Positions 17,697-64,000 of a DNA stretch of 64,000 nt are shown here, piece by piece. A program made the position numbers and the translations under genes. The stretch spans positions 32,001 to 96,000 of the IMG/VR virus record IMGVR_UViG_3300025809_002164. One strand, 5' to 3'. Source of the stretch: a virus. How positions within the stretch are numbered: the first letter of the stretch is position 1; every line of letters starts with the position of its first letter. The notes under the pieces were generated by a model, which worked only from the letters and a program-made list of their open reading frames with translations, had not been told where the DNA came from and did not search any database.

Positions 17697-18107
17697 TTAT
17701 AGAGAAATATCAAGGTTTTTAAAAAATTCTTTAGATAATTTGTCCTTTTCGAATATTAAAATTAATTTAATATTATTTAATTCACAAAAGTCATTTTTTT
17801 GATGGTCCCTCTTTAGTTGAGCTAAGTAATTATTCTCATAACCGCCGTGAAAGAATGGAACGTATTTAGTGTGCTGCCCTCCTTGAACTTCTATAGCTAT
17901 TTTTTCATTAGCATTGTATAGATCTAGAGTCATTCTTGTTCCGGCTATAGGAAACTCTTCAAAGACTATATGACGTCTCCAGTAAGGCTCTAGAAAAGTT
18001 TTTACGGATTTCTGGAACTTGCTTCTACTTTTGCCGGTCCAATCAATTGAATACTTATGGGCCCCTATAACCTTCCTGGAAGCCCCTGTTAAAGTTTTAA
18101 ATCTCAA
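17697..18107 (-). CDS. Vsr/DUF559-like endonuclease
   Basis: LDLY...IAIEVQGGQH...RDHQKNDFC...IKL. Confidence 0.75.
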   Translation of the reverse strand: MRFKTLTGASRKVIGAHKYSIDWTGKSRSKFQKSVKTFLEPYWRRHIVFEEFPIAGTRMTLDLYNANEKIAIEVQGGQHTKYVPFFHGGYENNYLAQLKRDHQKNDFCELNNIKLILIFEKDKLSKEFFKNLDISL

Positions 18108-21100
18108 CCCTCGATTCTTTCTTCAGGCTTATAGTGTTTAAACCTTTCGTGGGTGACCGTGGAGGCTAGTAGGACTGCTGGACTTATGTTTCCCTTAGTC
18201 GACTCCTGGAAGATGTGAGACATCCACGTTTGCTCGTAGGGGTGAGCCCATTTAGTGTCGATGAACATTTTTTTATTTCCTTCCCTGCTAGTAATGTGGG
18301 GCCAATTCGCATAATATATCTCGCCGCTTAAGTATGAGAGCCCGTTAAGGACTTCTATATTTTTTAGGTTAACCCTTGGACTATTAGGGTCGAGCCCGGT
18401 AGTTGGCAGTTTATTATAGTTGGGCCACACCTCGTCCCTGATGGATTGAGGCACGTTATACCAGCTAACTTGAATATTATTATCCATGTAAACTTCCGTG
18501 TAGGATAACTTTAAGAAGTCAAACTTCTCCTTTATCATAATCTGGTGGAGCTTTTTGTATAAGTCAGGGATATATTTTTGAAAACCATTTCTACACACAC
18601 CCTCCTCTGGGTCAGATATGGTCATGTCGTCTTCGAAAAATAAATAAAAATCAGAATCGCTGGAATCAAAATGCTCTGCAGCAAACTGGCGGCCGCCACA
18701 AATTCCAGTATTCTTGTTCATTACAATATGCTCAAAGCCGTAAGCTTCACAAATAGCTTTGTTACCTTCTCGAGCTTCTTGATTTGTTGAGTTATCTATG
18801 ATTACTTTTTGGCATGGATGGGTCAGGAAACCTTCGTGTTTTTGAAGAGATTTAATTGTAGCTTCAATCTGATCTGGAAAATTAAATGTAAGAAAGTATA
18901 AATTAGTTTTAACTTTTGAAATGTCATGAACTAGGGGAGTGAATGTAGGCTTTTCAGAAATGTACTCTTCTAGTTTTATTGATCCAGTCTCGAGATCTTG
19001 TAGGAATTTAACTACAAGGCCATTACTATCAAGGGAGTATCTCTTGTAATTTTCTGGCGAAAGTTTTGCCATAATTGCAAACACACTTTCTTCAGTTCCA
19101 GCCAACCCTTCGTTGATTGATCTATCAAGTAAGCTATAATATTGAGAATTAGCCTCGCCCAAAAAATCTTTGTGTCCGCCAAATAATCCACCCCTGCACA
19201 CATAGTCAACTTTAGTGCCAGCATATCTATTGATAGCATTAAACTCAAAACCGTGAATTTCTTTTTCAGCTTCGTATGGGTAAGACAAAAAGAGGAATGG
19301 GTCTATCGCATCAACTATACCGTCTAGGTTTTTTTTGTCATAGAAATAGTTTTCATAAACAGTTTGGCTGATCCCCGCATCTAGCCAGACAAAGTAATCA
19401 GTGTCAAATGGATTCCATATCTTGGAGTCATTCAAGAAGAACATTTTGGACATGACGATAGGGTTGTAGTATTCATTTTTGCATTGTGGGCTTTCTGGTA
19501 ACCAGCCCGCTTGATTTTGCCATGTTGGATTTGTCCGAATTGATTGCCACTTATCCCAGAACGGGGCGAACATGATATTTTTTATGTCTTCCAGTTCATA
19601 AATACGAACGAAGGTATTTTCTTTTGACCTGCGCTCCCAGACAAAAGATTCTAACGATTTAGGCACCCAGAGTACCATGTTGCATGGAATCTTAAGGAAT
19701 TTATCGAAATGCTCTTTATATCTTGGCCAATCACGTCCAACGCGATTGATGTCCCATAGGCCACTGACTATGGTCATATTTTCGCTTTGACTGATTGTGG
19801 ATAATTTTTCCATTTGGTTATTTTGAGTAGAGAATTTTTGAAAGTCTAAGTTCCCTTTGTTTGAATTGTTTTTTCTAATTATTAATACATTGCCGCCATA
19901 AAAATATTCATGTTTAGATATAGATGATAAGAGCTCTTCTTTGTAATCAACAAAAACATTCGTGCCATCTCCCCCCCCGCCAATATCTTCTATTATATAA
20001 AAACCATCCTGTTTTACTCTATCAAAAAAGTTTTGGAAAGTTTTGAATTGAGCATCAGCAGTATGTAGTCCATCATCTAAAATAATATCAAAACTAACTT
20101 CAGGATAAAAAGATTTAGAAAATAAAGAATCAGCAGAACTACCTAGCTTAGTTTGAATGCGATCCTCATTAATCATGCAATCTGGGGCTACATCAATACC
20201 GTATATTTGACTATTGGGAAAATATTCTTTCCACGCCTTTAGTATAGCTGCTGGAGTATAATGTTCATAATGAGAATAAATACCGCAAAAACTAGAGGGG
20301 ATACTTGGGTCAACTGTGCCAAGCCCTATTTCTAGATAATTAATTGGCTTGTTTCTATATGAAGAAAAAATTGATTGATAAAAATGAGTATATCCAGACT
20401 TGAATTTATCACTACCATGTTTTTCTATAATTGAGCTAAGAGGCAATTCCTCGAGGTAGGTAGTTGGGTTTTCGGATGAATTTAAATGTTTTACCCATAA
20501 GGAATCTACTGCATCTATATCTTGACCGCTCACTTCATATTCGTAATTATGTGCCTCAAGTTTTTGGGTTAAAAGATGTTGCTCTTCCTTATTTAAATTC
20601 ATATATTCTAACCTAATAACCTTCGGCCTATATTTAGTTAAATCAATTTGTTTAAAAATTTCCCAATCATGACCTTCTGCATCACATATTAAAACATCAA
20701 ATTTTGAAATATTGTGTTTGGAGAGTAGGCTTAGGAAGGTAATGCCGTTGACTTCTATATTGTTAGCTAAGTTATCTTTAACATAAATATCTCTTTCGTA
20801 GTCCGTTCCAAACCCATTCTTGAGTGGATATAACGCACTCATTCCTTTATAGCCGGGATGAAGTTCGTTACTGTTTATAACTTCATTACTTACATTAAGC
20901 ATAGTTATTGGGCCATCAACTTCGGTAACCGCACTTTGCTCATAAATGTAATTAGACCTATCAGTAAAGTTGTTTTTTAACTCTTCAAATATTTCTGGTA
21001 TTGGTTCGACCAATAAAGCTGACCATTTATATTTATCTAAAAACCCCCTTGTGTCATCGAAACTAATACCATCATTGGCACCAATTTGAACAACAAAAGG

Positions 21101-21157
21101 ATCAGTATTTAAAGTCCCTAATTTGTGTAAGTATTTTGATATTAAAGGTTCATTCAT
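18104..21157 (-). CDS. Four-domain fusion: FkbM methyltransferase + class I methyltransferase + HtrL/YibB-like + GT-A-like domain
   Basis: QIGANDG/VEP/DAEGHD; LEIGLG/GIDV/DDGLH; TIVSGLWD/SKMFFL/WLDAG/GGLFGG; IIDNS/NTGICGGR/FFEDD. Confidence 0.75.
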   Translation of the reverse strand: MNEPLISKYLHKLGTLNTDPFVVQIGANDGISFDDTRGFLDKYKWSALLVEPIPEIFEELKNNFTDRSNYIYEQSAVTEVDGPITMLNVSNEVINSNELHPGYKGMSALYPLKNGFGTDYERDIYVKDNLANNIEVNGITFLSLLSKHNISKFDVLICDAEGHDWEIFKQIDLTKYRPKVIRLEYMNLNKEEQHLLTQKLEAHNYEYEVSGQDIDAVDSLWVKHLNSSENPTTYLEELPLSSIIEKHGSDKFKSGYTHFYQSIFSSYRNKPINYLEIGLGTVDPSIPSSFCGIYSHYEHYTPAAILKAWKEYFPNSQIYGIDVAPDCMINEDRIQTKLGSSADSLFSKSFYPEVSFDIILDDGLHTADAQFKTFQNFFDRVKQDGFYIIEDIGGGGDGTNVFVDYKEELLSSISKHEYFYGGNVLIIRKNNSNKGNLDFQKFSTQNNQMEKLSTISQSENMTIVSGLWDINRVGRDWPRYKEHFDKFLKIPCNMVLWVPKSLESFVWERRSKENTFVRIYELEDIKNIMFAPFWDKWQSIRTNPTWQNQAGWLPESPQCKNEYYNPIVMSKMFFLNDSKIWNPFDTDYFVWLDAGISQTVYENYFYDKKNLDGIVDAIDPFLFLSYPYEAEKEIHGFEFNAINRYAGTKVDYVCRGGLFGGHKDFLGEANSQYYSLLDRSINEGLAGTEESVFAIMAKLSPENYKRYSLDSNGLVVKFLQDLETGSIKLEEYISEKPTFTPLVHDISKVKTNLYFLTFNFPDQIEATIKSLQKHEGFLTHPCQKVIIDNSTNQEAREGNKAICEAYGFEHIVMNKNTGICGGRQFAAEHFDSSDSDFYLFFEDDMTISDPEEGVCRNGFQKYIPDLYKKLHQIMIKEKFDFLKLSYTEVYMDNNIQVSWYNVPQSIRDEVWPNYNKLPTTGLDPNSPRVNLKNIEVLNGLSYLSGEIYYANWPHITSREGNKKMFIDTKWAHPYEQTWMSHIFQESTKGNISPAVLLASTVTHERFKHYKPEERIEG

Positions 21158-21168
21158 AATTTTAATTA

Positions 21169-21822
21169 TTAAATCTTGATAAAACTACCCCAAACGCATT
21201 GGGAAAATATGTCTTCTCGAAAAGGTTCTAATTGATGATTTTCTACAGAACTAGATATTCCTTCATAAGTAGATTCACAAAAAGACCATATTTTGTTATT
21301 AATGTGAGACTCAAAGTATTCTAGTGAATGGCTGTAGTCATGACACATTATAATGTCGCCAGATTTAATATGAGGACTTAGCATGTTGAATTCATTAACT
21401 TTATTGCCACCGTCACACAAAACAAGAGTTAAACCAGTTGATTGAATATCTTTAACTAAATCCCTGAATAAATGTGCGTTCTCAGAGGAGAATACATCAT
21501 AAAGTCTAAAGTCAACATTGGTATCTTTAATTAAATCATCATGATAATGGTTTTTGCGGACATCATAACTAATTAAATGTGTTTGCAGGTCCAGCTCCTT
21601 GGTACAAAAATCTAAAAATCTGGTTAATCCGCCAGCAGCCGTGCCTATTTCAATGATGGTTTTAGGTTTTTTTTCAGATATTAAATCATATAATGCATAA
21701 AAAGCATTGGGGTGTTGCATGCAGACGATTCCATCAAAACCGCATATACCACCTCCACCTTGGCGGGTGTGTACGGTTTCTTTATTGTATTTTACTTTTT
21801 TTGTAATTTCTGGATTTTTCAT
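21169..21822 (-). CDS. CmcI-like / rhamnosyl O-methyltransferase-like SAM-dependent methyltransferase
   Basis: PKTIIEIGTAAGG, LCDGG, GDIIMCHD. Confidence 0.7.
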   Translation of the reverse strand: MKNPEITKKVKYNKETVHTRQGGGGICGFDGIVCMQHPNAFYALYDLISEKKPKTIIEIGTAAGGLTRFLDFCTKELDLQTHLISYDVRKNHYHDDLIKDTNVDFRLYDVFSSENAHLFRDLVKDIQSTGLTLVLCDGGNKVNEFNMLSPHIKSGDIIMCHDYSHSLEYFESHINNKIWSFCESTYEGISSSVENHQLEPFREDIFSQCVWGSFIKI

Positions 21823-22733
21823 ATATTTAAAATTTGAATTAAGGAATCTAATCGAGCTTGACCTGAAAAAGATTTAATGTAATTATATGCATTGTGGGAG
21901 ATGTGATTCAAGAATTTTAAATCATCTTTCACTTCTAAGAATTTACTAATATATTTTTCTACATATTTTGATCCACCCATGCACTCTTTACGGTGAAGAC
22001 CTTCACTTTCTATAGATATATAGTGGGTGTTTGGCACAAGATTTGGAAAATACGGGAAGCGGTATTCGGTATGTATCATTGGTAGGCCAACGGACATATA
22101 TTCTATATCTCTGTGGCAAATTTCATAACTTCCTGCAGGAATGGATAGTCCACAATTATACTGGATTATATTAGATAGATAATCTGCTATTTTCATGGGG
22201 GGATGTCGATCATTAACATGTTTGTCGTCATGTAGTAAACTTTCTGAACCCCTGCCTGTAGTACATCTAAAGTATAATTTATTAATTATATTGTCATTCA
22301 ATATTAAACATTTACGCTTGTGATAATAATAATCATAATTAGTTTTCGGACAAAAGTTAAAAACAATAAGCGGGTGTACTTGGAATTTATTGTTTTTGGG
22401 TTTGACTCCCCAATTGGCATAAATATGTGGACCTATTAGTATATCATTAGGATTATTTCTGTTTAATATGATTTTTTTATAGGCATCAGAGGGAGCTTCG
22501 GAAAATGAAATAAGCTTACATGAATCATTTGTCTTGTCTTCGATGAGCATCTCGCAATCCATAATTGCAGCATTATAATCTGAGACATTAATTAAATTAT
22601 TTGATTTTGAAATAGAGCCTAAATGTAAAGTGCAATTCATGGATTCTTTTAAGAAGAAAGCTAGCTTAATTAAAAAAAGATGTGAGCCCCAGACTGGATT
22701 AGGGTTTAGAGTTTCGTTGAAGTAAACATTCAT
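21819..22733 (-). CDS. GT-B-like glycosyltransferase (GT90 / Glyco_trans_1_2-like C-terminus)
   Basis: KLYFR...CHRDIEY...LVPNTHYI...ISHNAY. Confidence 0.5.
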   Translation of the reverse strand: MNVYFNETLNPNPVWGSHLFLIKLAFFLKESMNCTLHLGSISKSNNLINVSDYNAAIMDCEMLIEDKTNDSCKLISFSEAPSDAYKKIILNRNNPNDILIGPHIYANWGVKPKNNKFQVHPLIVFNFCPKTNYDYYYHKRKCLILNDNIINKLYFRCTTGRGSESLLHDDKHVNDRHPPMKIADYLSNIIQYNCGLSIPAGSYEICHRDIEYMSVGLPMIHTEYRFPYFPNLVPNTHYISIESEGLHRKECMGGSKYVEKYISKFLEVKDDLKFLNHISHNAYNYIKSFSGQARLDSLIQILNI

Positions 22734-23380
22734 TTGAAATTGGTAGAGTTTATAAAATCATAATCTTCTTTGTAGAAATTAAGAATAGAACTTTTTATTT
22801 TAGGGCTTATTTTCCAATTTAATTTTTCACGAGCATATTCATAAGAACCATTAAAAGGTTTGGTTTCTACGCCTGAATTATGTTTGATGATAGAATTTTT
22901 GATTGATGGATCAATTGATTTAATGGTATCGTAAATTTTTTTAAAATCTCCAAATTTATATATATTTATATTGGGATGTATGAAGTTTATCTGAGGTTTA
23001 ATATGATTATCGTGAGTGTATGGGTTTTTTTTGTATTCAATAAATGATTGAATGATAAATCTATAGAAATCATCTACCGTTTTATTATTGATTTGTGATT
23101 GCCTCATGAAAAATTCACTCACAACTCTAGCAAAAGGGTCTCTTACAATAGTGAAGGAATATGTGATATTTGTGTTAGATAAAAAATTAAATAGATCTGG
23201 ATCTTTGTTATCTCTATGCTGTAAGGAGCAGGGTTTATTTAGCTTATCGCAACCTGGCGATCTTAAATGAAAATGTAATGAATAACCATTGCTTTCGAAA
23301 AAATGTGTTATGCTTTCACCCCCGCATTTAGGAATATGAGAAAAGAATATGTTGATTTTATCTTTAGTGTAAATTGGCAT
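22730..23380 (-). CDS. Carbohydrate sulfotransferase (Sulfotransfer_2 family)
   Basis: PAPS-binding HIPKCGGESI and FTIVRDPFARVVSEF; HIKPQ; YKEDY. Confidence 0.8.
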   Translation of the reverse strand: MPIYTKDKINIFFSHIPKCGGESITHFFESNGYSLHFHLRSPGCDKLNKPCSLQHRDNKDPDLFNFLSNTNITYSFTIVRDPFARVVSEFFMRQSQINNKTVDDFYRFIIQSFIEYKKNPYTHDNHIKPQINFIHPNINIYKFGDFKKIYDTIKSIDPSIKNSIIKHNSGVETKPFNGSYEYAREKLNWKISPKIKSSILNFYKEDYDFINSTNFK

Positions 23381-23381: not shown

Positions 23382-24644
23382 TCATAAGTTTTTTTCTATT
23401 CTTTCTGCCCAGCCACGCTTTTTACTATTGGCCCAGTAAACTACACGAGCTGGCTTTTTATCAGTTAAAAACATTTCTTCGTAATGTATTGGTTTTGAAT
23501 TTTTCATGAATTGATTTAATTGTTCTCCTTCGATTGATTTAGAAAATATACCTTCTCCGTTATCGTCGTCAAATGCAACCAGAATTGATTGATAGTCATC
23601 CTTGGGCATTTCATGACGCTCAAGATTAACTAGGTGGTAAAAAGAAAACATAAAACTATCCTCCCATTCTTTATCGTTTTTATATGGATGCGGGTTGGGG
23701 GGGAAGTAGTTTTCTGCTGTATACTTTTGGAAGGATTTTTTCTTAAAATGTATACCTGCATATTTTTCATAGTCGCGTAGACTTCTTTTATTTCCTAATC
23801 CATATTCACCTAAGTCTATTCCGTTATCTTCTACTCCGATAAGCTGTCTAATTCTAGCTCTTGCAGAATCATTACCTTTCCACCACATATCTTCTCCACG
23901 TTTGCTTTGATCATCCCATACTAGTTTGCCCGCTCTTTCTTCCCTCATTGTTGCGTGCCAAATTATTACTTGGTGTGGGTGAAATAAATCATACCCATGA
24001 GTAAAGCTGCGAACACTTAAATTTAATTCTTCACCCGCAAAAAAAATATCCCTATCGTGCTTGACATCTTTAGCCCACTGATTAGTTCCGAATGCAAAGT
24101 GACCACTTAAGAATCTAGCGGGATAAGGTTTTTTTAAATCTTTCCAATCCCTAACTCCAGTAGGGCGGATAAAGATGGTGTTATGAGGGTAAAAGCATGC
24201 CGCCTCTGAAAGCCAAGGCTCTTGAACTCTTTCGTCGGGGTCATTGAATGGATTGTAGTATGGCAGGTATCCTCCTATAATTGGATTGTGACCTTCGCTC
24301 GTTAAGTCTTCGTGCCACCCAATCAGAGTGCTGTCCCAGTTTTTATTAAACCTGTGATGCGAGTCTAATTGGCAGACAAAGTCTTCATCTGTTAGGAGTT
24401 CTTCGTTGATGATTGCTCTAGCCGTAGCCAATCCTTTAGCTTCCTTATAGGGCATGTCATAAATTTTAAATCTATCATCTTTCCTGTATTCATCTAAATT
24501 ATCAAAGCCATCTTCTTCACAGAACTGCCTGCATATACCAAAGTGTATTCTCTCTGGAAATTCCGCATTTTCTAGAGCACTCTTGATGGTGGGAATCAAT
24601 TCTGGCTCTCTATAAGCTGGAAGGTGGACTAATATGGTTTTCAC
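23382..24644 (-). CDS. GT60-type polypeptide/hydroxyproline alpha-GlcNAc transferase, paralog 2
   Basis: PAYREPELIPTI, GLATAR, QLDSHHRF-x2-NWD, RFLSGHFAF, FAGEE, RSFTHGYDLFHP, YGLG-x2-RSL-x-DYE. Confidence 0.85.
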   Translation of the reverse strand: MKTILVHLPAYREPELIPTIKSALENAEFPERIHFGICRQFCEEDGFDNLDEYRKDDRFKIYDMPYKEAKGLATARAIINEELLTDEDFVCQLDSHHRFNKNWDSTLIGWHEDLTSEGHNPIIGGYLPYYNPFNDPDERVQEPWLSEAACFYPHNTIFIRPTGVRDWKDLKKPYPARFLSGHFAFGTNQWAKDVKHDRDIFFAGEELNLSVRSFTHGYDLFHPHQVIIWHATMREERAGKLVWDDQSKRGEDMWWKGNDSARARIRQLIGVEDNGIDLGEYGLGNKRSLRDYEKYAGIHFKKKSFQKYTAENYFPPNPHPYKNDKEWEDSFMFSFYHLVNLERHEMPKDDYQSILVAFDDDNGEGIFSKSIEGEQLNQFMKNSKPIHYEEMFLTDKKPARVVYWANSKKRGWAERIEKNL

Positions 24645-25907
24645 TTAGTTAGGTATAACTCCCTCTATTATAGGCATCCAGTCTTTAGATTTAGAGTGAG
24701 GCCAAATTAGCCATGATTTAGGTAATTCTGAAGCTTCGAAATTTCTCCACAGTCTGACAAATTCGTCTTTAGGATTATCCTCTAGTAAGTTTTTAACTTC
24801 ATCTTCTGATGCATCTAGCCTTACCATTTCTTTTCCGTTTTTATCCTTAAATGCAATAACCCATACATCATAATCATTTTCAGTAAATGTAGGTTTATGA
24901 ACATCGATACAATACTTAAAGTCAGACACAAAACTTTTTTCGTATTGAGACTTAATGGAAAACGGAACGGGGGGAGGCTTTCTATCTATAGTGAATTGTT
25001 GAATTTTTCTATCTTTGAAACGTATCCCGGAGTATTGCTCGTAATCCTTAAGCGATCTAACTTTTCCGAGCCCATACTTAGGTATATGCTGCCTTCTGAG
25101 GGAATCCATACCGTGAAGCTTTCTGTATCTAGTGAAACTATCTTTGTTTAATTTTTCCCATTTATCTACATCATCCCAATGCCTAGACCTGCCCTCCCTG
25201 GTGTAGTGATGCCAAACCCAGGGTCTGTGGAGATGGAATAGATCATAACCCCAAGTATATGCCCTAGTGCTTAAAGAGCTTTCTTCTCCATGAAAGTATA
25301 ATTTAGGATCGTATGGAACTTCCTCGCAAAACAAACCAAGAGTAAATATAAAATGACCACTAATGAACCTAGCTCTCTCTGGGGAAGAGCCTTCCCAGTT
25401 ATTAATTGTCTCTGGGAAAATAAATATGGGACCTTCCGGCATAAACCTATCGATGTATGTTCTCCATACATCGTCAAGCCTTTTCTCTCCTTTAATGTCT
25501 GGGTCGTATGAGGGTAGGTAGGATGATAGTAGGGGTTTTTTACTTCCTTCTTTTTTAAGCTGGTTTAAAGTTTCTTTAAGCTTTAGATCCCAATCTTTAA
25601 TGAATCTATGGTGTGAGTCTAGCTGAAAATAGTACTCTTCTCCGTCGTATAGTTTTTGTATTTGATGTCGAGCATGGCATACCCCTAAACTATCTTTATA
25701 GTTAGTTTCAATTATTTTAAAGCTTTTTCTTTTTTTGTATTTACTTAAATCATTAATCTTATCTTCAGCTTTGAATTGGTTTGAGATTGCAAAAACTAGA
25801 TTCCTTGGATTCTTTGCATTTTTAAGGCAATTTTCTATCGTTGGAATTAACTCTGCATCCCTATAGCTAGCTATTGATATGAATATTTTATTTTTTTTCA
25901 TTTTCAA
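24645..25907 (-). CDS. GT60-type polypeptide/hydroxyproline alpha-GlcNAc transferase, paralog 1
   Basis: IFISIASYRDAELIPTI, GVCHAR, QLDSHHRF-x2-DWD, FISGHFIF, VPYDPKLYFHGEE, RAYTWGYDLF. Confidence 0.88.
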   Translation of the reverse strand: MKMKKNKIFISIASYRDAELIPTIENCLKNAKNPRNLVFAISNQFKAEDKINDLSKYKKRKSFKIIETNYKDSLGVCHARHQIQKLYDGEEYYFQLDSHHRFIKDWDLKLKETLNQLKKEGSKKPLLSSYLPSYDPDIKGEKRLDDVWRTYIDRFMPEGPIFIFPETINNWEGSSPERARFISGHFIFTLGLFCEEVPYDPKLYFHGEESSLSTRAYTWGYDLFHLHRPWVWHHYTREGRSRHWDDVDKWEKLNKDSFTRYRKLHGMDSLRRQHIPKYGLGKVRSLKDYEQYSGIRFKDRKIQQFTIDRKPPPVPFSIKSQYEKSFVSDFKYCIDVHKPTFTENDYDVWVIAFKDKNGKEMVRLDASEDEVKNLLEDNPKDEFVRLWRNFEASELPKSWLIWPHSKSKDWMPIIEGVIPN

Positions 25908-33549: not shown

Positions 33550-33550
33550 A

Positions 33551-35296: not shown

Positions 35297-35330
35297 TTTA
35301 GTTTTTTAATTTTAGTGTAATTTTATATTG

Positions 35331-48816: not shown

Positions 48817-48817
48817 C

Positions 48818-49831: not shown

Positions 49832-49853
49832 AATGTATTTTTTTCTATTATTT

Positions 49854-51289: not shown

Positions 51290-51292
51290 TAT

Positions 51293-54199: not shown

Positions 54200-55291
54200 A
54201 TGGAAAACATAATATACAAAGGTGCAATAAACTCATTAAGCTTTGGTAATGTATCTTACAATATACTAAGAGAACTTTACAGAAAGAAAACAAATGTTGC
54301 CTTTTTTCCAATAGGAGAAAACTTAGACTTTAGTGCGTTTGATAAAGTAGATCAAGGGTTTAGGGATTGGGTTATATCTATCTCTCAGAATAGATTCCAT
54401 TTAGTAAATAAAGATTATCACACATTAACTCAGTGGCATATTAATGGGGCAGAAAATAGAATATCTAAAAGCCAGACATTATTCTCTTTTTATGAGACAG
54501 ACCAACCCACCCCAACAGAGAAAGCTCTAGTCGGCCTCCAGGATAACTGTATATTTTCCAGCAAGCATGCATACGACTCGTTTAAGAGTGTTGGCTGTGA
54601 TAACATACACTATGTACCTATCGGCTTCGACGAAGACTTTACAGCTAGCAATGATGAGTACCTACCCAATAAGGTACACTTTGGTTTAAGTGGCAAATTT
54701 GAGAAAAGAAAAAATACCGCCCAGATAATTAGAAATTGGGCCAAAAAATATGGAAATAATTTTGACTACCAACTCTCATGCTGTATAACTAATCCGTTCT
54801 TTAAACCAGAGCAAATGAACCAAGTTATCAATCAAACCTTAGAGGGTAAAACTTATGGCAACATAAACTTTTTACCTAGATTAAAAACCAATTCTGAGGT
54901 TAACGAATTAATAAATGCGGTAGACATTGACCTTACAGGGCTTAGTGGAGCTGAAGGCTGGAACCTTCCAGCCTTTAATTCGACCGCTTTAGGTAAGTGG
55001 AGCATAGTGATGAACCACACATCTCACAAGGATTGGGCTAATAAGAAAAATTGCATATTGGTCGAGCCAGACAATGTGGTTGATATATACGATGGATCTT
55101 TCTTTACTAAGGGTTCGCCGTTTAATCAAGGAACCATGAATATGATTTCAGATGAAAAAATGTTAGACTGTTTCGAGAAATCTGAAAAGTTTTATGGAAA
55201 AAAGAATAAAGAAGGTTTAAAATTACAAGAACAATTCACATATAAACAAACATTAAATAATATATTAGAAATTATAAACAATGAAAAATAA
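54200..55291 (+). CDS. GT4-like glycosyltransferase
   Basis: FYETD, GKFEKRKN, SGAEGWNLP. Confidence 0.75.
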   Translation: MENIIYKGAINSLSFGNVSYNILRELYRKKTNVAFFPIGENLDFSAFDKVDQGFRDWVISISQNRFHLVNKDYHTLTQWHINGAENRISKSQTLFSFYETDQPTPTEKALVGLQDNCIFSSKHAYDSFKSVGCDNIHYVPIGFDEDFTASNDEYLPNKVHFGLSGKFEKRKNTAQIIRNWAKKYGNNFDYQLSCCITNPFFKPEQMNQVINQTLEGKTYGNINFLPRLKTNSEVNELINAVDIDLTGLSGAEGWNLPAFNSTALGKWSIVMNHTSHKDWANKKNCILVEPDNVVDIYDGSFFTKGSPFNQGTMNMISDEKMLDCFEKSEKFYGKKNKEGLKLQEQFTYKQTLNNILEIINNEK

Positions 55292-55487
55292 TTACACACT
55301 AAGAGAAGAGGGTAACAGAATATTCATGTGCTGCGGCAAGGCTGGATGCCCGAGCGTAGCTCTAAGCGATGAAGGTCTTATTGAAATTACTGATGATTTT
55401 GGAAACACAGTTAAAATGAAAACTCAAGAGGCTGAACTCATTAAGGGTGCGGTAGAAAAACTTTCCAAAAGCACCAGCAAAGATTAG
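55281..55487 (+). CDS. Small Cys-motif protein, paralog A
   Basis: MCCGKAGCPSV...ITDDFGNTV. Confidence 0.7.
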   Translation: MKNNYTLREEGNRIFMCCGKAGCPSVALSDEGLIEITDDFGNTVKMKTQEAELIKGAVEKLSKSTSKD

Positions 55488-55488
55488 A

Positions 55489-55707
55489 GTGAAAAAGCCT
55501 AGCAACGAAGTTATATTATGCTGTCCTTCTGTACCATGGAATCCATGTTGCCCGTCTCTAAAAATAAATGAAGAGAAGAGTAAGTTTACAATAACTGATG
55601 ACTATGACAAGACCATAACAATAGACAATAAAGATATACCTAAATTAATAAATGACATTAATAGAATTACTAGCATGCATATCCCTAATGTGGATAATCA
55701 AGGATAG
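55489..55707 (+). CDS. Small Cys-motif protein, paralog B
   Basis: LCCPSVPWNPCCPSL...ITDDYDKTI. Confidence 0.65.
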   Translation: MKKPSNEVILCCPSVPWNPCCPSLKINEEKSKFTITDDYDKTITIDNKDIPKLINDINRITSMHIPNVDNQG

Positions 55708-55987
55708 TTATATAACTTTAAAACCTAGAGAATTTTTAAAATCTAAATCTAAATTCTTAAATAAATTATTAAGCTGTTCACTATGCCTTGGATTCTGGAT
55801 AGGCTTTATACCAGTATTAGTAGATATGTTCTTATTAAATTTCCAGCCAACAAATAAAGAAATTGCAAGAGTAAGCTTTTACCCTCTAGCGACAGCAGGA
55901 GCATGCTGGGTTGCCGATTCATTACTCAATATGGTTCAAGAAATATGGGTATATTACAAGAACATAAGAGAAGAAAATAATAAATAA
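55652..55987 (+). CDS. DUF1360-like membrane protein
   Basis: PRE...LLSCSLCLGFW CxxC in a membrane context. Confidence 0.6.
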   Translation: MTLIELLACISLMWIIKDSYITLKPREFLKSKSKFLNKLLSCSLCLGFWIGFIPVLVDMFLLNFQPTNKEIARVSFYPLATAGACWVADSLLNMVQEIWVYYKNIREENNK

Positions 55988-56021
55988 TTTGAAAAACAAA
56001 ACATAAAAAATATTATAAAAT

Positions 56022-56450
56022 ATGAACTTAGAAATCGACCCAAGATACAGTACATATTCACTCTCTATAATACTTCACTTAATTCACAATAATGAAGATT
56101 ACAAGAATGAGTGGATTAAAAAATACCCCAAAACAGAAAGCTTCGCTACAAACTTTTTTAATAACGAAAATTGCGGATGCAGACCCAAGCTAGTAAGTCA
56201 ATACAAAAAAGACAGATTTCATGCAGACGTAATGACGGTAAATTTTATAAATTCAAACGAAGATGTAATTGATTTCGATAAGTTCTGCGAAGAGAATGGG
56301 GGGCAAGATTTAACTGGTCATGTTTTTGCAATTCCAGCATCAGAAGGTCACTATCAGGATTTTCTTGCAGCAATTCAACAAAAAAATGCAACTTTCTCTC
56401 ATTTTAACACAATCCAGATTAACGAAAAGATATTGTTAACATTTTTCTAA
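56022..56450 (+). CDS. Hypothetical protein
   Basis: 142 aa with NCGCR. Confidence 0.65.
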   Translation: MNLEIDPRYSTYSLSIILHLIHNNEDYKNEWIKKYPKTESFATNFFNNENCGCRPKLVSQYKKDRFHADVMTVNFINSNEDVIDFDKFCEENGGQDLTGHVFAIPASEGHYQDFLAAIQQKNATFSHFNTIQINEKILLTFF

Positions 56451-56830
56451 TGCCTATTTATACATTTTCTCACCCCAAGAGCGGAAAAACTATTGATTTA
56501 TTCTTCTCTATGAAGGATGAAAAAAAATATACCGACAGCGATGGAACTAGCTGGATAAGGGAGTATTTATCACCACAATTAAACACTAGCGGATCAGTGG
56601 ACCCATGGGACAGTAAGAGTTTTGTAAGTAAAACTAACAACAAAGGAACATTAGGAGATTTACTAGACAGAAGCTCCGACCTGTCAAGTGCTAGAGCCCA
56701 GCAAAACGGCGGGGTGGACCCTGTTAAGGAAAAATATTACGAAAACTATTCTAAAGAACGTAATGGAGCAACTCATAGAGATAAAATCCCAAAAACTTTC
56801 GAAAATAAACACATAAAAATAGATACATGA
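56450..56830 (+). CDS. FmdB-like protein lacking the zinc-ribbon cysteines
   Basis: MPIYTFSHPKSGKTIDLFFSM resembles the FmdB start MPxYxYxCxxCG. Confidence 0.5.
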   Translation: MPIYTFSHPKSGKTIDLFFSMKDEKKYTDSDGTSWIREYLSPQLNTSGSVDPWDSKSFVSKTNNKGTLGDLLDRSSDLSSARAQQNGGVDPVKEKYYENYSKERNGATHRDKIPKTFENKHIKIDT

Positions 56831-57375
56831 GTATACAAATATATAAGCCCAATAAAAGTAACTCAGGGTTTGCTTTCAGTTTTTATACTGGAGAAAACTT
56901 CAAAGATAAATCTCCGATATTATTTATTAATGCCATAGCTCAACACTCTTGGGACGATTCAAGAAAGGTTGGTTCATTTTCTGGGAACAAAAAAAACCAA
57001 GAAAAAAATATAAGTATTAAATTCAATCAATTCGAGTGCGGGTCAATAGTTAGCTCTATAATCAACAGGTTCGAGTGGAATACATATCACTCATTTGAAG
57101 ATAATAGAACCCAAATAAAGCTATCTCCATGGGATAAAGAAATATCAACAACTAGAATTAATCAAAAGACAAAAGAATCATATCAAGAAAAGTATAAAGT
57201 TCCCGCATTCGGTCTATCTATAACAAGAAATGGAAGCCAGACATTTAAAATACCGCTAGAGCCTGGAGAAGCTCAATGCTTAAGAATTTTATGTGAAGAA
57301 ATCGTAAAAAAATCTTGTGAGCATAATGTTTATAAATCTACAAAAAAGGTAGAGCCAGAAGAATACGAATTTTAA
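56827..57375 (+). CDS. Hypothetical protein
   Basis: 182 aa with acidic-aromatic tail EEYEF. Confidence 0.65.
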   Translation: MSIQIYKPNKSNSGFAFSFYTGENFKDKSPILFINAIAQHSWDDSRKVGSFSGNKKNQEKNISIKFNQFECGSIVSSIINRFEWNTYHSFEDNRTQIKLSPWDKEISTTRINQKTKESYQEKYKVPAFGLSITRNGSQTFKIPLEPGEAQCLRILCEEIVKKSCEHNVYKSTKKVEPEEYEF

Positions 57376-59289
57376 ATGAAAAAATTAAAAGTATTAATTC
57401 ACAGCAATCACTCTCGAGCTAAAACAGGTTTTGGTAAACATTTAAAAAACTTAATCACATATTTGTATAAAACAAAAAAATACGATATCATAGAATTAGC
57501 AAACGGCAAACAAGAAAACGATCCTTCTCTTGCTACTATGCCTTGGAAATGCCTAGGCTCTCTACCTAGTGACCCTAGATTAATACAGGAATGTAACTCA
57601 GATCCCAACAAGGGCAGGCTGGCCAGTTACGGCCACTACATGATAGATCAAGCGATCAAGAATGAAAAGCCTGATGTGTATTTAGGGGTAGAAGATATAT
57701 GGGGCTTAGAGGGGTTATGGAAAAAAAAGTGGTGGAAAAAAATACACTCAATAGTATGGACCCCCATTGATAGTGTTCCGTTATTGGATAAACATATAGA
57801 GGGTGCATTAAATTCCAAGAAGATGATAGTTCAAGCTTCCTTTGCGATGAAAGCTCTAGAGGAAAAGGGTATAAAAAATACAGAGCTACTCCCGGTACCC
57901 CTAGACCCATCTAATTTTTTCAAGATAAGCGATACTGATAAACTAAATCTAAGACTTTTAAATAGTATAGGCAAGGATGACTTTATAATCGGTTTTGTTT
58001 TTCGCAATCAACTGAGGAAAAGTGTACCAAACCTACTAGAAGGATTTAAAACTTTTATTAAAAATAATCCTGGAACAAATGCAAAATTATTATTCCACAC
58101 ACACTGGAATGAAGGCTGGGACATTCCGAGGTTATTAAAAGAAAAAAACATAGATCCTAAATTAGTATTAACCACTTACTTTTGTGATAAATGTAATAAA
58201 TATGAAATAAAACCATTCTCAGGCCAGGAACTAGACTGCAAGTTTTGCGGATCTAAAAAGTCCCAACAGACATCTCAAATAAACAGGGGAGTTTCCGAGT
58301 CTCAATTGAATGAAATTTACAATTTAATGGATGTATATTGCCATCCATTTACATCAGGAGGTCAAGAGATACCAATCCAAGAAGCGAAACTTTGTGAAAT
58401 TATAACCCTAGTTACTAATTATTCATGCGGAGAAGATTACAGTTCTATAGAATCTGGAGGCCTACCATTAACTTGGAGTGAATACAGAGAGCCAGGGACT
58501 CAATTCATTAAAGCTTCAACCGATAGCTCTAGTATAGAGTCTCAGTTAAAAGTTGTTTTTAATATGAGTAAAAAAGATAGAAGTTCCATGGGCAAGATTG
58601 CAAGAAAATTCACTATAGATTTTTGCTCAATTGATTCCGTTTGCTCTAAGTTTGATGATATTATATCTACAGTCACTCCCTCCGATTGGGATTTCAATCT
58701 AGATTACGAAGTTAAGAACGACACATACAATCCCCCTGAAATCAAAGAGGACAGAGAGTGGGTTATTGATTTGTATAAAAATATACTTAAAATTAATGCA
58801 GAGGAGGAGGATGTGGCTGGAATAAACCATTGGGTCTCCAGGCTTAAATCAGACTTAAACAGGCAGGCAGTCTATAATTATTTTATAGATGTAGCCAGAA
58901 AAGATAACTCAGAAAATAATAAAGTTCCATTTGAGGAGACCTTAGATCCAGAAGATAAAGGCAAAAGGATACTATTTGCCTTGCCCGGCTCAAGTATAGA
59001 TGTATTTAATTCAACATCTTTATTGAAATATATAAAAGACAAGTACCCAGATAATAATATTTATTATGCCACTGATAAAGAAAATTTTGAAATTCTTTTT
59101 GGTAACCCATATATACATAAATTAATTCAATACGACCCAATAATGGAAAATTTTTCATGGGCAGAAGGTCAAGGATCTCACGAAGGGTTCTTCAATTTTG
59201 TATTAATACCCCACACCAACACCCATAAGGCTCCTAACTTTATACACGGAGATAAACATAAAATAGAATACGATATAAATTATGCATAA
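57376..59289 (+). CDS. Multidomain GT4-like glycosyltransferase with zinc-ribbon insert and GT9-like tail
   Basis: TGFG, WTPIDS, RNQLRKS, CDKC...CKFC, LNEIYNLMD, GGQEIPIQEA, GNPYIHK. Confidence 0.8.
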   Translation: MKKLKVLIHSNHSRAKTGFGKHLKNLITYLYKTKKYDIIELANGKQENDPSLATMPWKCLGSLPSDPRLIQECNSDPNKGRLASYGHYMIDQAIKNEKPDVYLGVEDIWGLEGLWKKKWWKKIHSIVWTPIDSVPLLDKHIEGALNSKKMIVQASFAMKALEEKGIKNTELLPVPLDPSNFFKISDTDKLNLRLLNSIGKDDFIIGFVFRNQLRKSVPNLLEGFKTFIKNNPGTNAKLLFHTHWNEGWDIPRLLKEKNIDPKLVLTTYFCDKCNKYEIKPFSGQELDCKFCGSKKSQQTSQINRGVSESQLNEIYNLMDVYCHPFTSGGQEIPIQEAKLCEIITLVTNYSCGEDYSSIESGGLPLTWSEYREPGTQFIKASTDSSSIESQLKVVFNMSKKDRSSMGKIARKFTIDFCSIDSVCSKFDDIISTVTPSDWDFNLDYEVKNDTYNPPEIKEDREWVIDLYKNILKINAEEEDVAGINHWVSRLKSDLNRQAVYNYFIDVARKDNSENNKVPFEETLDPEDKGKRILFALPGSSIDVFNSTSLLKYIKDKYPDNNIYYATDKENFEILFGNPYIHKLIQYDPIMENFSWAEGQGSHEGFFNFVLIPHTNTHKAPNFIHGDKHKIEYDINYA

Positions 59290-60424
59290 ACTAGAAAGCT
59301 TCGCTCTATCATCTGGGTCTAAAATTGAAAAACCTTTCATAGAACAGTGCTTCTTTCCTATATTGGAAAAGAAATTTATATGTATTAGTCAGAAATCAGA
59401 AAGCGAATCTAAGAAATACAACTTTTTTGATGATGTAATTTTTCATATAAAACCTTTCTTGGAAAGAAACGGAATATCTATAGTTGAGATCGGGAGTAAT
59501 AAATCTAGGCCAACTTTTTATTCTAAGACTTATTCAAATTTAACCACACTTCAGTCTAGTTATTTAATTAATAAATCAATATTATATCTAGGCAACTATA
59601 ATTTGCATGCGAACATAGCTGCTCACTTTAATAAGAAAGTAATATTTCCATCAAACAATGATTTCACTGAGACTTTTAAACCTTATTGGTCTAAGAAAGA
59701 TTTGTGCAGCATAATCACTCCAGACCTTAAAATTAAGCCTACCTTCCAGAACGAAGAAAGCCCTAAGACTATAAATAAAATCAACCCAGAAGATGTCGCC
59801 TGCGAAGTTCTAGACCTACTAGAAATACCTCACAACCTTCAGAACATTCGTACAGTTTTCCTAGGGGAACTATACAAAGATCCGATCATAGATTTAATTC
59901 CCGAAGAATTCAACGTTAATGCAATGAATATATCTGGTCCAGTAAACATCAGGTTTGATAAAGTTTTTAATCCCCAATTTCTGAATCTTTGCGAGTCTCT
60001 TAAATTAATTAATATAATAACAGATAAAGTTATACCTGTAGAGTATATTAAAAATATAATAAACAACATAAACTCAATAACATTTTTTGTAAACTCAAAA
60101 ACCACAGAAGACGAAATGAATATCATGCAGTCCATAGGTAAACCTTTAGTTTTATTATGTAAAGAATCTAAAAACATAGACAAACTCAGGCTCAAATTTA
60201 TAGACTACCCCATTAAACTATTTACGACATTAACAAAAAAAGATTTAAACCAGCCGGTTCTTAGTGATTTAAAATTTCTAAGCAAGAAAAACATAATAAG
60301 CAAAGGTAATGTATTCAACTCTTATTTATCATTAAGTTTAAATAAAAACGTTTCATCTATAACTAATTCTAAAGAAGTCTGGGAAGACTTGCCATATTTT
60401 AGAATTTTTAGAGAAAAAGCTTGA
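59282..60424 (+). CDS. GT9-like (possibly degenerate) glycosyltransferase fusion
   Basis: IVEIG, QSSYLINKSILYLG, NIAAHFNKK, INKINPEDV. Confidence 0.5.
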   Translation: MHKLESFALSSGSKIEKPFIEQCFFPILEKKFICISQKSESESKKYNFFDDVIFHIKPFLERNGISIVEIGSNKSRPTFYSKTYSNLTTLQSSYLINKSILYLGNYNLHANIAAHFNKKVIFPSNNDFTETFKPYWSKKDLCSIITPDLKIKPTFQNEESPKTINKINPEDVACEVLDLLEIPHNLQNIRTVFLGELYKDPIIDLIPEEFNVNAMNISGPVNIRFDKVFNPQFLNLCESLKLINIITDKVIPVEYIKNIINNINSITFFVNSKTTEDEMNIMQSIGKPLVLLCKESKNIDKLRLKFIDYPIKLFTTLTKKDLNQPVLSDLKFLSKKNIISKGNVFNSYLSLSLNKNVSSITNSKEVWEDLPYFRIFREKA

Positions 60425-61220: not shown

Positions 61221-63335
61221 CTAACCTTTAATCCCAGCGGGCCCAGTGTCCAATACAGATTCTATATTAAAAATAGATTCTTTATCTAACTTCTTAATAG
61301 TAACTATCATATCCTTCATATCTAAGTCGTGTAAGATTTTGGCCTCACCATTAACTTCAACCACTGGAACTTTTTCTTTTAACTTAGCTTTAATTTTACC
61401 ATTAGCTAAGCACCAAGTGCCCCTAGTCTGCACGGTATTTCCCTGTTCGGGTTGACACTTAAAGTCACTTTCACTAGTGTCATGATGGTAGCTTAAGTGT
61501 GAATTTTCATCAAGATCTTCATAAAATTCATCCTTCTCATAATATTCTTTACTAAATTGATTTTGTGAAGGTTTGTGTAAATTACTAGGAGTGCTATTAC
61601 TATCGGAATGAGAAAAAGTAACTATGGATTCAGCGAATATAGTTATTCCATCTGGATCAGATTTAGAAGTCTTAAACTCCTTGGATGATCCATTAACAGT
61701 AGGAACTATACCGTCTTTAGTAGGATCTTGTACCCAGTTAAACTTAATATTTTCATCATCTATATCGTCTTTACTCCAGAAAAACCTTTTACTTTTTGAG
61801 AGTATATTACCCTCAACATTTATCTCAAACGTTTCGTCAAACCCAACATTTTGCTTCTCCGCTTTAACTGCAGCATTATCGCAAAAGCATCTCACAGCTA
61901 AGAAATAATCAGACTGTGTCATTGATATTGAGCTTCCACCACCAGCATCTTCAGAGCTTATCCCCGTCCATGTACCATCTCTTTTTTGATAACTAAGGAT
62001 ATTAGCATCTTGTGAATTTTCTACTTTTATTTTCTTTGGGTTCTTTGGATTAGGAGGACCTATTGAATTACCCCCTGGAGAGTAGACATGAACTAAGACT
62101 GGCAAGAAATTAGTAGGAGCTAAACATTTAATTTTCCCAGAACTAGAAACCCTTACTATTTTTTTATCATCATTCCTAGAGAAAACAGGCCCTCTGCTAT
62201 CTGAATCCCATCCCGCCCCCCTGACTCCATCTTTACCTCCATCAACAGATCTAGCTAGTCTGGCCCTATATCTCAATCCTACATCTGGAAAATTGATATT
62301 AGCTTCCTCCCCCACTCCTAAAGTAATAGCCTGAGTTACTTCAAGAGCGGTATTTTCATTATCCATCTTAGAAAGATCAATAGACCTAGTTCCATAAACA
62401 AATTCTGCATCCTCATAAACATCCGAAGAGGTCAAGCCTCCCGTTAAGCCTGAGGATAATTTTATTGTTTTGTTAAAGCTATCTCCTTTTTCTATATCAC
62501 AATTACAATAGTGCCCATTTTTATGGTATCCTAAATTTTCATCTTTAATTTTTGAATCAACTCCGTCCTCTTTTACATTAGAATTGTCTAGATCATCAAA
62601 ACCTTGATCTCCTGCCCCAGCAGCGCATAAATTAACAGGTACATCTATAGGTATTTGCCAGCTACAGTTAGCTTGGTCCTTGAATATTACCATAGTTTTA
62701 CCTGGCTTTGTTGCGGTCATGGTAAAAGTATGTGAGTCTTCGTCAAAATTTTCATCAACATTGAAGTTATTTCTTCTTACTTGTTCTGCCCCCATCGTTC
62801 TCATCTCTGGTCTAAAATTGTTAGCAGCTACTGAAACAGGAGGGTCAATATTAATTATGTCAGGGTTAGCGACAACAGCAAACCTCATATTTCCCAACCC
62901 CCCTATAATCTTTATTTTAATTTCTTCTCCCTTAGGTATTGCCACTCCATTTAATTTTCCAAATTTTCCGGCAATCTTATTAACACAAGATCCTCCACCA
63001 AATGCAAGTTGACCTCTACCCGCAATAGCGGCAGCAAGGCCCCCAACCTGTATTGCTTTTATTCTATTGTCTACTACTCCATTACCTTCAGCCTCGACAC
63101 AATAATCAACACATCTTCTAGTTATTGTTAATGTACCTTTTATTTTATTATCGTTGCCAATAAAATTTTCACCATCAATCCAAATATGACTTTCTGGATT
63201 ATTTCTAAACACAGTGTTTTCAACAAAATTTATATTTCCACCACCATCTCCTGGTTGATAGTTCCATGAGATTATTTTATTAATCTTACCCGCAGGGCAA
63301 CACTGTTCGTTAAATTTGAATATATATTCTGCCAT
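61221..63335 (-). CDS. Large Gly/Cys-rich putative virion protein with Ig-like segments
   Basis: TATKPGKTMVIF and IVRVSSSGKIKCL resemble Big_2 strands; directly downstream of the mucin-like ORF. Confidence 0.55.
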   Translation of the reverse strand: MAEYIFKFNEQCCPAGKINKIISWNYQPGDGGGNINFVENTVFRNNPESHIWIDGENFIGNDNKIKGTLTITRRCVDYCVEAEGNGVVDNRIKAIQVGGLAAAIAGRGQLAFGGGSCVNKIAGKFGKLNGVAIPKGEEIKIKIIGGLGNMRFAVVANPDIINIDPPVSVAANNFRPEMRTMGAEQVRRNNFNVDENFDEDSHTFTMTATKPGKTMVIFKDQANCSWQIPIDVPVNLCAAGAGDQGFDDLDNSNVKEDGVDSKIKDENLGYHKNGHYCNCDIEKGDSFNKTIKLSSGLTGGLTSSDVYEDAEFVYGTRSIDLSKMDNENTALEVTQAITLGVGEEANINFPDVGLRYRARLARSVDGGKDGVRGAGWDSDSRGPVFSRNDDKKIVRVSSSGKIKCLAPTNFLPVLVHVYSPGGNSIGPPNPKNPKKIKVENSQDANILSYQKRDGTWTGISSEDAGGGSSISMTQSDYFLAVRCFCDNAAVKAEKQNVGFDETFEINVEGNILSKSKRFFWSKDDIDDENIKFNWVQDPTKDGIVPTVNGSSKEFKTSKSDPDGITIFAESIVTFSHSDSNSTPSNLHKPSQNQFSKEYYEKDEFYEDLDENSHLSYHHDTSESDFKCQPEQGNTVQTRGTWCLANGKIKAKLKEKVPVVEVNGEAKILHDLDMKDMIVTIKKLDKESIFNIESVLDTGPAGIKG

Positions 63336-63337
63336 AA

Positions 63338-64000
63338 TTAAAGATTTTGAATAAATACTACATCACATTCTTGATTTCCTGGAGTTAAGCTTACCGAAAT
63401 ACTAGGAGTAATAGTAGAAGTAACCGTAATGCTAGGAGTAATAGTAGGAGTAGTCGTAATGCTGGGAGTAATAGTAGGAGTAGCCGTAATAGTAGGAGTG
63501 GTCGTAATGCTAGGAGTAATCGTACTCGTTGGAGTAATCGAAATAGTACAGGTAACACTAGGAGTGATTGTAATACTAGGAGTAATAGTGGGAGTGATAG
63601 TAGGAGTAATCGTGCTCGTCGGAGTAATCGTACTAGTCGGAGTAATCGTGCTCGTCGCAGTAATCGTACTCGTTGGAGTAATCGTACTCGTTGGAGTAAT
63701 CGTACTCGTTGGAGTAATCGTGCTCGTCGGAGTAATCGTGCTCGTCGGAGTAATCGTGCTCGTCGGAGTAATCGTGCTCGTCGGAGTAATCGTGCTCGTC
63801 GGAGTAATTGTGCTGGTTGGAGTTGGCGACAGCCCTGGGGTAACGCTCTGTGTAGCAGTGGGAGTAGGGCTTTTATCTTGAGTGCTAGTTGGAGTAATTG
63901 TGCTTGTCGGAGTAATCGTGCTAGTTGGAGTAATTGTGCTAGTCGGAGTAATCGTGCTAGTCGGAGTAATTGTGCTTGTCGGAGTAATCGTGCTAGTCGG
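63338..64000 (-). CDS. C-terminal part of a mucin-like Thr/Pro/Ser-rich protein (start outside window; not in ORF track)
   Basis: Open frame from 64000: PTSTITPTSTIT...TQDKSPTPTATQSVTPGLSPTP(TSTITP)n...SISVSLTPGNQECDVVFIQNL, TAA at 63338-63340, 2 nt before the next ATG. Confidence 0.9.
   Translation of the reverse strand, partial: PTSTITPTSTITPTSTITPTSTITPTSTITPTSTITPTSTQDKSPTPTATQSVTPGLSPTPTSTITPTSTITPTSTITPTSTITPTSTITPTSTITPTSTITPTSTITPTSTITATSTITPTSTITPTSTITPTITPTITPSITITPSVTCTISITPTSTITPSITTTPTITATPTITPSITTTPTITPSITVTSTITPSISVSLTPGNQECDVVFIQNL
63400..64000. repeat. 18-bp coding tandem repeat encoding TPTSTI
   Basis: Unit ggagtaatcgtgctcgtc; variation mostly at third codon positions of the minus-strand frame. 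Confidence 0.92.

Follow-up and report, generated by a model that had tools for sequence, protein, structure and literature searches.

The window analysed here is a 64,000-nucleotide stretch of viral DNA, bases 32001–96000 of a 146-kb phage record (IMGVR_UViG_3300025809_002164, here G000); positions are those of the window unless marked "genome". It holds a cassette (18104–25907), inserted between a UvsX-like gene and an endonuclease-like gene, with two genes of glycosyltransferase (GT) family 60, and its far end runs into a block of genes for proteins with Thr/Pro/Ser-rich tracts. Two soluble GT60s, a conserved two-domain partner and six tract proteins lead us to read the sequence as that of a large uncultured phage that probably sugar-coats its own particle. 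The cassette comprises the following open reading frames (ORFs; aa, amino acids).

18104..21157, minus strand: FkbM and MT24 methyltransferase domains (PF05050, PF09612) fused to an HtrL-GT-A double glycosyltransferase; proposed elongating enzyme
21169..21822, minus strand: CmcI/MT24-type O-methyltransferase (PF04989, 31 bits); family near GT60 in 15 loci
21819..22733, minus strand: 304-aa protein, probable glycosyltransferase; family near GT60 in 22 loci
22730..23380, minus strand: sulfotransferase (PF03567, 52 bits); candidate decoration enzyme in the variable middle of the cassette
23382..24644, minus strand: GT60 paralog B, 420 aa (PF11397, 163.8 bits); second, old paralog clade
24645..25907, minus strand: GT60 paralog A, 420 aa (PF11397, 201.7 bits); proposed initiator, soluble

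Both ORFs at 23382–25907 are GT60 family members, as the initial annotation had proposed: they score above the curated PF11397 cut-off (21 bits), and their DSHH and F-x-GEE motifs are intact. The paralogs are ~35% identical to each other. Both motifs are invariant in an alignment of 29 GT60 homologs (A1), as are D97-S98-H99, G207-E208-E209, W232-H233 and R237, positions (DSH, GEE, WH and R237) that we take, from what is known of GT27, to have catalytic roles. Members of A1 were chosen independently of the DSHH/GEE motifs; the retrieved loci were scanned for with those motifs, which makes motif counts in them circular, and A1 alone serves as evidence. Paralog A, the one that was folded, gave an AlphaFold (AF2) model with a predicted local distance difference test (pLDDT) score of 90, consisting of a GT-A catalytic domain (~1–320) and a C-terminal beta domain. 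With this model, every Foldseek match listed above rank 42 was a GT27 polypeptide N-acetylgalactosamine (GalNAc)-transferase, and the best matches in VIA were again polypeptide GalNAc-transferases (Z 20.8, root-mean-square deviation (rmsd) 3.9, 275 aligned), with SpsA the best GT2 (Z 16.6). GT60 is expected to share this polypeptide GalNAc-transferase (ppGalNAc-T)-like fold (PMC8724618). A profile search of Protein Data Bank (PDB) sequences with A1 found no match; the likeness to GT27 is at the level of fold only. Hydropathy indicated no clear signal or transmembrane segment in the GT60 enzymes and tract acceptors tested.

Two GT60s are carried by 36/95 viral GT60 loci. In a tree of phage and bacterial GT60 sequences, with eukaryotic ones not included, the window paralogs A and B fall in separate old clades, phage copies group among bacterial ones, and the type found in the cultured phage XacN1 groups with betaproteobacterial copies; the GT60–tract pairing is therefore not one inherited block. 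The family is common in bacteria (at least 525 matches), and the label "eukaryote-style" thus fits the characterised members but not the family or its phage copies. Suspected GT60–tract fusion proteins were checked and were not real.

The candidate acceptors lie at the end of the window and beyond it.

61221..63335, minus strand: 704-aa ORF without a tract, at the end of the tract-gene block; predicted structural from its position
63338..64000 (genome 95338–98088), minus strand: repeat ORF, candidate acceptor; C-terminal 220 residues (~697–916) of a 916-aa protein
genome 100294–102489: tract protein, 731 aa, beyond the window end
genome 104458–108000: tract protein, 1180 aa, tracts between PKD and Calx-beta domains
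genome 107987–110206: tract protein, 739 aa, tail-tube fold, 190-aa tract and Calx-beta domain
genome 111979–113580: tract protein, 533 aa, beyond the window end
genome 137959–140829: tract protein, 956 aa, beyond the window end

The repeat ORF does carry a Thr/Pro/Ser tract; it is the final part of a longer, 916-aa reading frame whose start lies 2088 bases past the window end. The tract of that protein spans ~290 aa of 6-mer repeats (~44% T, 17% P, 16% S, 15% I), and the tract pattern gave 16 matches against 0 in 100 shuffles. All told, the six tract proteins of G000 contain ~1,600 tract residues and ~900 Thr/Ser. The structural status of the 916-aa ORF rests on gene position. The same holds for the neighbouring 704-aa ORF, previously called a putative virion protein; it has no Pfam or PHROG match, and homologs occur in the relatives G037 and G070 and not in G076, a 180-kb relative with overlapping ends that appears complete and is negative for both GT60 and HtrL. 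The clearest structural link is the ORF at genome 107987–110206, whose tail-tube fold matches a Phi812 tail-tube cluster (Atlas TM 0.63/0.81, predicted models on both sides) and whose tail-tube domain is homologous to a gene adjoining the tape measure in G076. Because one tract is fused to this predicted tail-tube domain, the tracts would be placed on the virion.

Three tail-tube-like paralogs are present (window 4845–6134, genome 107987–110206 and genome 110290–111912), and all three match the single gene beside the G076 tape measure.

The association between GT60 and tracts, which the initial annotation had proposed to check across phages, was found in both directions. A tract ORF occurred within 10 kb (fetched flanks) of GT60 in 55/93 viral loci, compared with 3/70 lineage loci without GT60. 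Among these 55, the tract lay <=300 bp from GT60 in 38 and on the same strand in 54. The tract pattern was present in 22/32 GT60 contigs >50 kb and, in reverse, PF11397 was present in 16/33 tract-selected contigs >50 kb, against 0/38 randomly drawn contigs for either trait. Thr-Gln and Ser-rich tracts escape the DNA pattern, so pattern counts are lower bounds: the apparent exceptions G070 and G038 have long tracts that it overlooked. Four of 50,697 cultured phage records carry a GT60 homolog (XacN1, Xoo-sp13, CM1 and RAS14), with no match to a mycobacteriophage. The three that were tested, XacN1, Xoo-sp13 and CM1, all had tracts (34, 34 and 9 matches), versus 0/9 GT60-negative jumbo relatives. 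A blastn search for tract-bearing cultured phages, a method too codon-dependent for a census, returned XacN1 and Xoo-sp13 only. Bacterial GT60 loci have HtrL in 35/80 and a tract in 20/80, and include compact chromosomal operons of a small tract protein, GT60 and HtrL-GT-A in Bacteroidota, Gammaproteobacteria and Gemmatimonadota.

Clustering of all ORFs around 96 viral GT60 loci yielded one constant partner, the fusion of HtrL/YibB with a GT-A domain (85/96), which had been overlooked in the first reading of the window and to which XacN1 ORF330 also belongs. Here it forms the C-terminal ~560 aa (residues ~459–1017) of the protein at 18104–21157. Its AF2 model (pLDDT 91) has two GT-A domains, both with middling Z scores to their nearest structures: the N-half is closest to GT6 (Z 11.7, rmsd 3.7, 196 aligned; in a whole-protein search, residues 1–264 matched BoGT6a and GTB at Z 11.3–11.7), and the C-half to B4GALNT1/POMGnT1/GnT-I (Z 14.7–15.4). 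A PDB-sequence profile search with the HtrL alignment (A3) found nothing at the sequence level. Among 27 records searched, HtrL-GT-A was confined to GT60-positive ones and absent from five of these. Within this phage lineage the two GT60s at one end of the cassette and HtrL-GT-A at the other are constant, and the genes between them vary: G070 has a sulfotransferase-like ORF at the position of the window's own, and G037 does not. The 304-aa ORF at 21819..22733 has no Pfam or NCBIfam match. G076 carries other genes at the cassette site.

Other partners were seen in passing. The different gene set at the cassette site of G076 (G076:C1:114444-125003) includes one ORF with a GT11-like motif, recognised by eye. 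A carbamoyltransferase gene directly follows GT60 in XacN1 and Xoo-sp13 (L006:16415-18712) and lies near it in other loci too (15 viral loci), making a carbamoylated glycan possible. In the bacterial operons L365, L432, L398, L406 and L371 a small Thr/Pro-tract protein, mostly with an Arg-Arg leader-like N-terminus, adjoins the GT60(s) and HtrL-GT-A; the Bacteroidota operons add a carbamoyltransferase-like gene, and L406 a PqqD-family gene. The arrangement recalls peptide-modification clusters. L370, on a contig binned as Saprospiraceae, looks phage-like; two genes for tract proteins immediately precede its GT60, and the partner on the downstream side is a different one.

XacN1 provides a cultured test case. 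Its single GT60 is ORF334 (39% identical), and the genes for its roughly ten tract proteins, ORF233-237, 350, 369, 370, 372 and 384, flank tail-sheath and head-completion genes. Like G000 it has GT60, HtrL-GT-A and tract proteins, and its virions are reported to be Schiff-positive, with at least two proteins stained by periodic acid–Schiff (PAS) (PMC5852040). Unlike G000, it is a T4-like myovirus with one GT60 that groups with betaproteobacterial copies. The report on XacN1 did not name GT60, tracts or a glycan (PMC5852040).

Two-way co-occurrence, the tail-tube fusion and the PAS-positive XacN1 virions support the earlier proposal that GT60 acts on Thr-rich virion stalks, and we consider cytoplasmic O-linked N-acetylhexosamine (HexNAc) glycosylation of stalk Thr by the GT60s the likely function of the system. 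The cassette at 18104–25907 would act in the cytoplasm of the host and glycosylate structural proteins of the phage itself. On family and fold, one or both GT60s would first move HexNAc onto Thr (and Ser) of the tracts, most likely as alpha-linked N-acetylglucosamine (GlcNAc) from UDP-GlcNAc, as in TcOGNT (PMC9472816); the product of characterised GT60s on mucin-like proteins is GlcNAc-alpha-O-Thr (PMC9472816; PMC8724618). Paralogs A and B, which belong to separate old clades, may favour different sites, or one may act on naked and the other on primed peptide. On linkage and fold, the HtrL-GT-A double transferase would then add up to two residues; less securely, the in-cassette sulfotransferase and methyltransferases may cap the glycan. 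Acceptors would be the six tract proteins, including the tail-tube paralog, and the outcome would be stiff, protease-resistant glycosylated stalks holding Ig-like domains off the particle, stiffening and protection being proposed because mucin-type glycans have these effects. Shielding, adhesion and attraction of glycan-foraging hosts, suggested in the initial annotation, are further candidate roles.

Several observations weigh against this reading. Fold similarity fixes neither donor nor acceptor. The randomly drawn contigs, in which neither trait occurred (GT60 0/38, tract 0/38), were shorter than the test contigs, and the counts overstate independent events because the loci are related and the cultured set is one clade; there are about four to five separate GT60–tract contexts. 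In G000 itself ~37 kb separate the GT60s from the closest tract gene. Tracts without GT60 and GT60 without tracts both occur: G076 lacks GT60 and HtrL yet encodes one 1568-aa protein with three short tracts, GT60 is absent from 3/7 near-complete tract-selected records, and 60/80 bacterial GT60 loci have no nearby tract. For XacN1, the Schiff stain could detect host polysaccharide, and the accessible text of PMC5852040 gives no identity for the stained bands. G076 is also a natural comparison for the GT60–tract system. Outside the cassette, the window carries the following accessory genes.

32503..38730, minus strand: GT61, GT77-like/DUF7796, a 309-aa ORF, Fcl and Gmd; accessory, not tied to GT60
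32503–33549, minus strand: GT61, 94 bits
33551–35296, minus strand: GT77-like N-domain, PF03407, 41 bits
36758–37699, minus strand: Fcl, best NCBIfam match, below the equivalog cut-off
37696–38730, minus strand: Gmd, best NCBIfam match, below the equivalog cut-off
41769..52147, minus strand: GT2s, CAP59/Anp1-like GT and a low-GC nucleotide-sugar block; accessory
41769–42563 and 50669–51289, minus strand: GT2, profile matches
44587–50672, minus strand: low-GC (27%) block, amino/N-acyl/N-formyl uronate-type nucleotide sugar
54200..60424, plus strand: lineage-core genes including GT-B-like ORFs; accessory, weak GT4 signal in 57376–59289 only

The initial annotation had drawn on these genes for a parallel with the Dictyostelium Skp1 pathway, in which GT60, GT2, GDP-fucose and GT77 would build one fucosylated, methylated and sulfated stalk glycan. 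This full version, a special case of the preferred explanation, we regard as unlikely. All the named families are in the window, and the GT61, GT77-like, GT2, sulfotransferase and methyltransferase calls hold as profile matches; the Dictyostelium pathway uses GT60, GT2/GT74 and GT77 (PMC8724618), the sulfotransferase and methyltransferases lie inside the cassette, and the genome has an adenosine 5'-phosphosulfate (APS)-kinase-like gene. The Gmd and Fcl calls hold as well, as best NCBIfam matches that stay below the equivalog cut-offs. The GT4 assignments are weak: 57376–59289 falls short of the Pfam threshold (E 0.002), and 54200–55291 has no profile match. Linkage speaks against a single pathway, since GT61, GT77, Fcl and Gmd are near GT60 in only 1, 1, 0 and 5 of 95 viral loci. 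Moreover, accessory genes persist where GT60 is missing: GT60-negative G076 retains GT61, GT77, Gmd, APS kinase and the GT4-like genes (58% and 52% identity for 54200–55291 and 57376–59289), whereas GT60-positive G037 has no Gmd, and G037 and G070 both have no APS kinase. GT77 and fucose-transfer genes are thus not co-inherited with GT60, no dedicated GT74 search having been made. Searches for a prolyl hydroxylase (PF13640, PF13759) found none in G000, G037, G070, G038 or complete XacN1, with positive controls matching, G000 being incomplete and a host-encoded enzyme possible. With the accessory genes unlinked to GT60 and no prolyl hydroxylase found, the Skp1 parallel fails as one system.

A second alternative is that the GTs, GT60 included, remodel host lipopolysaccharide (LPS) or capsule for superinfection exclusion or surface change, the tracts being plain rigid linkers. 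Jumbo-phage GT clusters have been so interpreted (PMC7824862), as have cyanophage sugar gene clusters, and HtrL appears in papers on LPS/lipooligosaccharide (LOS) core loci. The amino-uronate block, Gmd/Fcl, GT61 and ~nine further sulfotransferases look polysaccharide-like and not tied to GT60, and this explanation is plausible for much of the accessory set and likely for part of it. For the core of the system it is quite unlikely: the best fold match is peptide-acting GT27, ~4 Z units over the polysaccharide GT2s. In 38 viral loci a tract gene is followed directly by GT60, small bacterial operons likewise pair GT60 with a tract protein, and the conserved neighbours showed no flippase, polymerase or ligase.

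That GT60 acts on some other protein, such as host proteins or hydroxyproline, with tract adjacency reflecting shared late transcription, is in our view very unlikely. Gnt1 is a soluble GT60 acting on hydroxyproline (PMC8724618), some GT60-positive contigs lack HtrL and many bacterial loci lack tracts, but neither hydroxylase profile matched, and unrelated phages as well as operons outside phages show the same linkage. Hypermodification of phage DNA with sugars deserves next to no credence: phage GT-A enzymes do glycosylate 5-hydroxymethylcytosine and 5-hydroxymethyluracil (10.1101/2023.12.21.572611) and the cassette sits among replication genes, but the fold and the linkage to tracts favour peptides as acceptors, the conserved neighbours include no oxidase or thymidylate-synthase-like partner, and a TET/JBP (PF12851) search, run without a positive control, was blank.

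The low-GC block encodes a Gfo/Idh dehydrogenase (best match UDP-GlcNAc 3-dehydrogenase), an epimerase, a formyltransferase, a hexapeptide acyltransferase, a DegT aminotransferase and a nucleotide-sugar dehydrogenase, and it resembles a diamino-uronate pathway with N-formylation. It is probably a recent insertion, because it is mostly absent from the close relatives G037 and G070. Elsewhere in the record, genome 8157–24685 (L004, L005) contains ~nine sulfotransferase paralogs among GT31/Fringe, GT92/GT2, GT8-like, GT77-like and GT61 genes. Next to these come a gene fusing APS kinase with a nucleotidyltransferase, then a pyrophosphatase gene; this block is not co-inherited with GT60. Two DUF2827 genes and a GT25/GT32/GT34 triple fusion (genome 141239–145684, L003) come directly after tail-tip/fibre genes.

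G000 has lambda-like tail-tip genes, a 2984-aa tape-measure-like gene, and DNA polymerase, ClpC-like and UvsX-like genes. A G076 block read by size and order as terminase/portal/capsid is missing from it, and a terminase search of G000 was blank. As these head genes are absent, the record is incomplete despite a 100% completeness estimate; G037 and G070 also lack tail-tip genes. One Atlas cluster (7 records) hints at a host in Verrucomicrobiota. At 8547–12683, functions like those of DNA polymerase III alpha seem to be divided among several genes (polymerase by PHROG match, exonuclease-like and PHP-like by eye), and a 54-bp tandem repeat (2.3 copies, 97%) at 31984–32105 lies within a 169-aa ORF with a coiled-coil-like repeat.

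The proposed system resembles several known ones in part. Protist GT60s (T. cruzi TcOGNT1/2 and the Dictyostelium Golgi enzyme) share PF11397, the ppGalNAc-T-like fold, DSH and GEE with the phage enzymes, and a Thr-rich mucin-type acceptor is proposed for the phage too; the phage GT60s, unlike these, are soluble, have no Golgi anchor, would act in the bacterial cytoplasm, and have their own C-terminal beta domain and an HtrL-GT-A partner. The Skp1 pathway of Dictyostelium and Toxoplasma (prolyl 4-hydroxylase (P4H), Gnt1, PgtA GT2/GT74 and AgtA GT77) likewise has a soluble cytosolic GT60 initiator, and GT2, GT77 and GDP-fucose genes occur in G000, but G000 has many repetitive acceptors instead of one hydroxyproline site, and its GT77/fucose genes are unlinked to GT60. 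Mucin-type O-glycosylation shares the Thr/Ser/Pro tandem-repeat acceptors and differs in its secretory-pathway (Golgi) location, G000 being a phage of a bacterium. Animal GT27 polypeptide GalNAc-transferases offer the closest solved fold and act on Thr/Pro/Ser tandem acceptors, yet the phage GT60 is 12–18% identical to them and has no detected ricin lectin domain. In mycobacteriophages Che8, Corndog and Myrna, phage transferases are reported to glycosylate capsid and tail-tube proteins (Freeman 2023, as described in PMC12363180 and PMC12619734). Those glycans are at subunit C-termini, whereas G000 has long dedicated tracts and GT60 initiators; its candidate acceptor, with a tract fused to a predicted tail-tube fold, is similarly a structural protein. 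A literature search on a phage or bacterial GT60–tract system, with most subscription papers outside its coverage, found no paper. To our knowledge, GT60 activity is known only from protists and glycosylated phage particles only from a few mycobacteriophages. What this analysis adds is the HtrL-GT-A core, the finding that the Skp1-like accessory genes do not belong to it, a tract joined to a predicted tail-tube domain, and a phage in culture, with earlier glycoprotein staining, on which the idea can be tested.

More tentatively, at somewhat short of even chances, GT60, HtrL-GT-A and a Thr/Pro tract may constitute an undescribed portable prokaryotic module for mucin-type O-glycosylation, which would build virion-stalk glycan coats in unrelated large phages, here sulfated, methylated and lineage-variable, and modify small tract proteins in several bacterial phyla. 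HtrL/YibB would then gain a function as a GT6-like transferase, and the GT60/GT27 family a prokaryotic context. With XacN1, Xoo-sp13, CM1 and RAS14 in culture the system is directly testable, and the virion glycoproteins of XacN1 are so far unexplained. If the module is real, it would offer soluble, lipid-carrier-free O-glycosylation enzymes. A few soluble enzymes would then give many large aquatic and plant-associated phages a dense mucin-like coat, which would matter for the stability and adhesion of the particles, for grazing and for recognition by immune systems.

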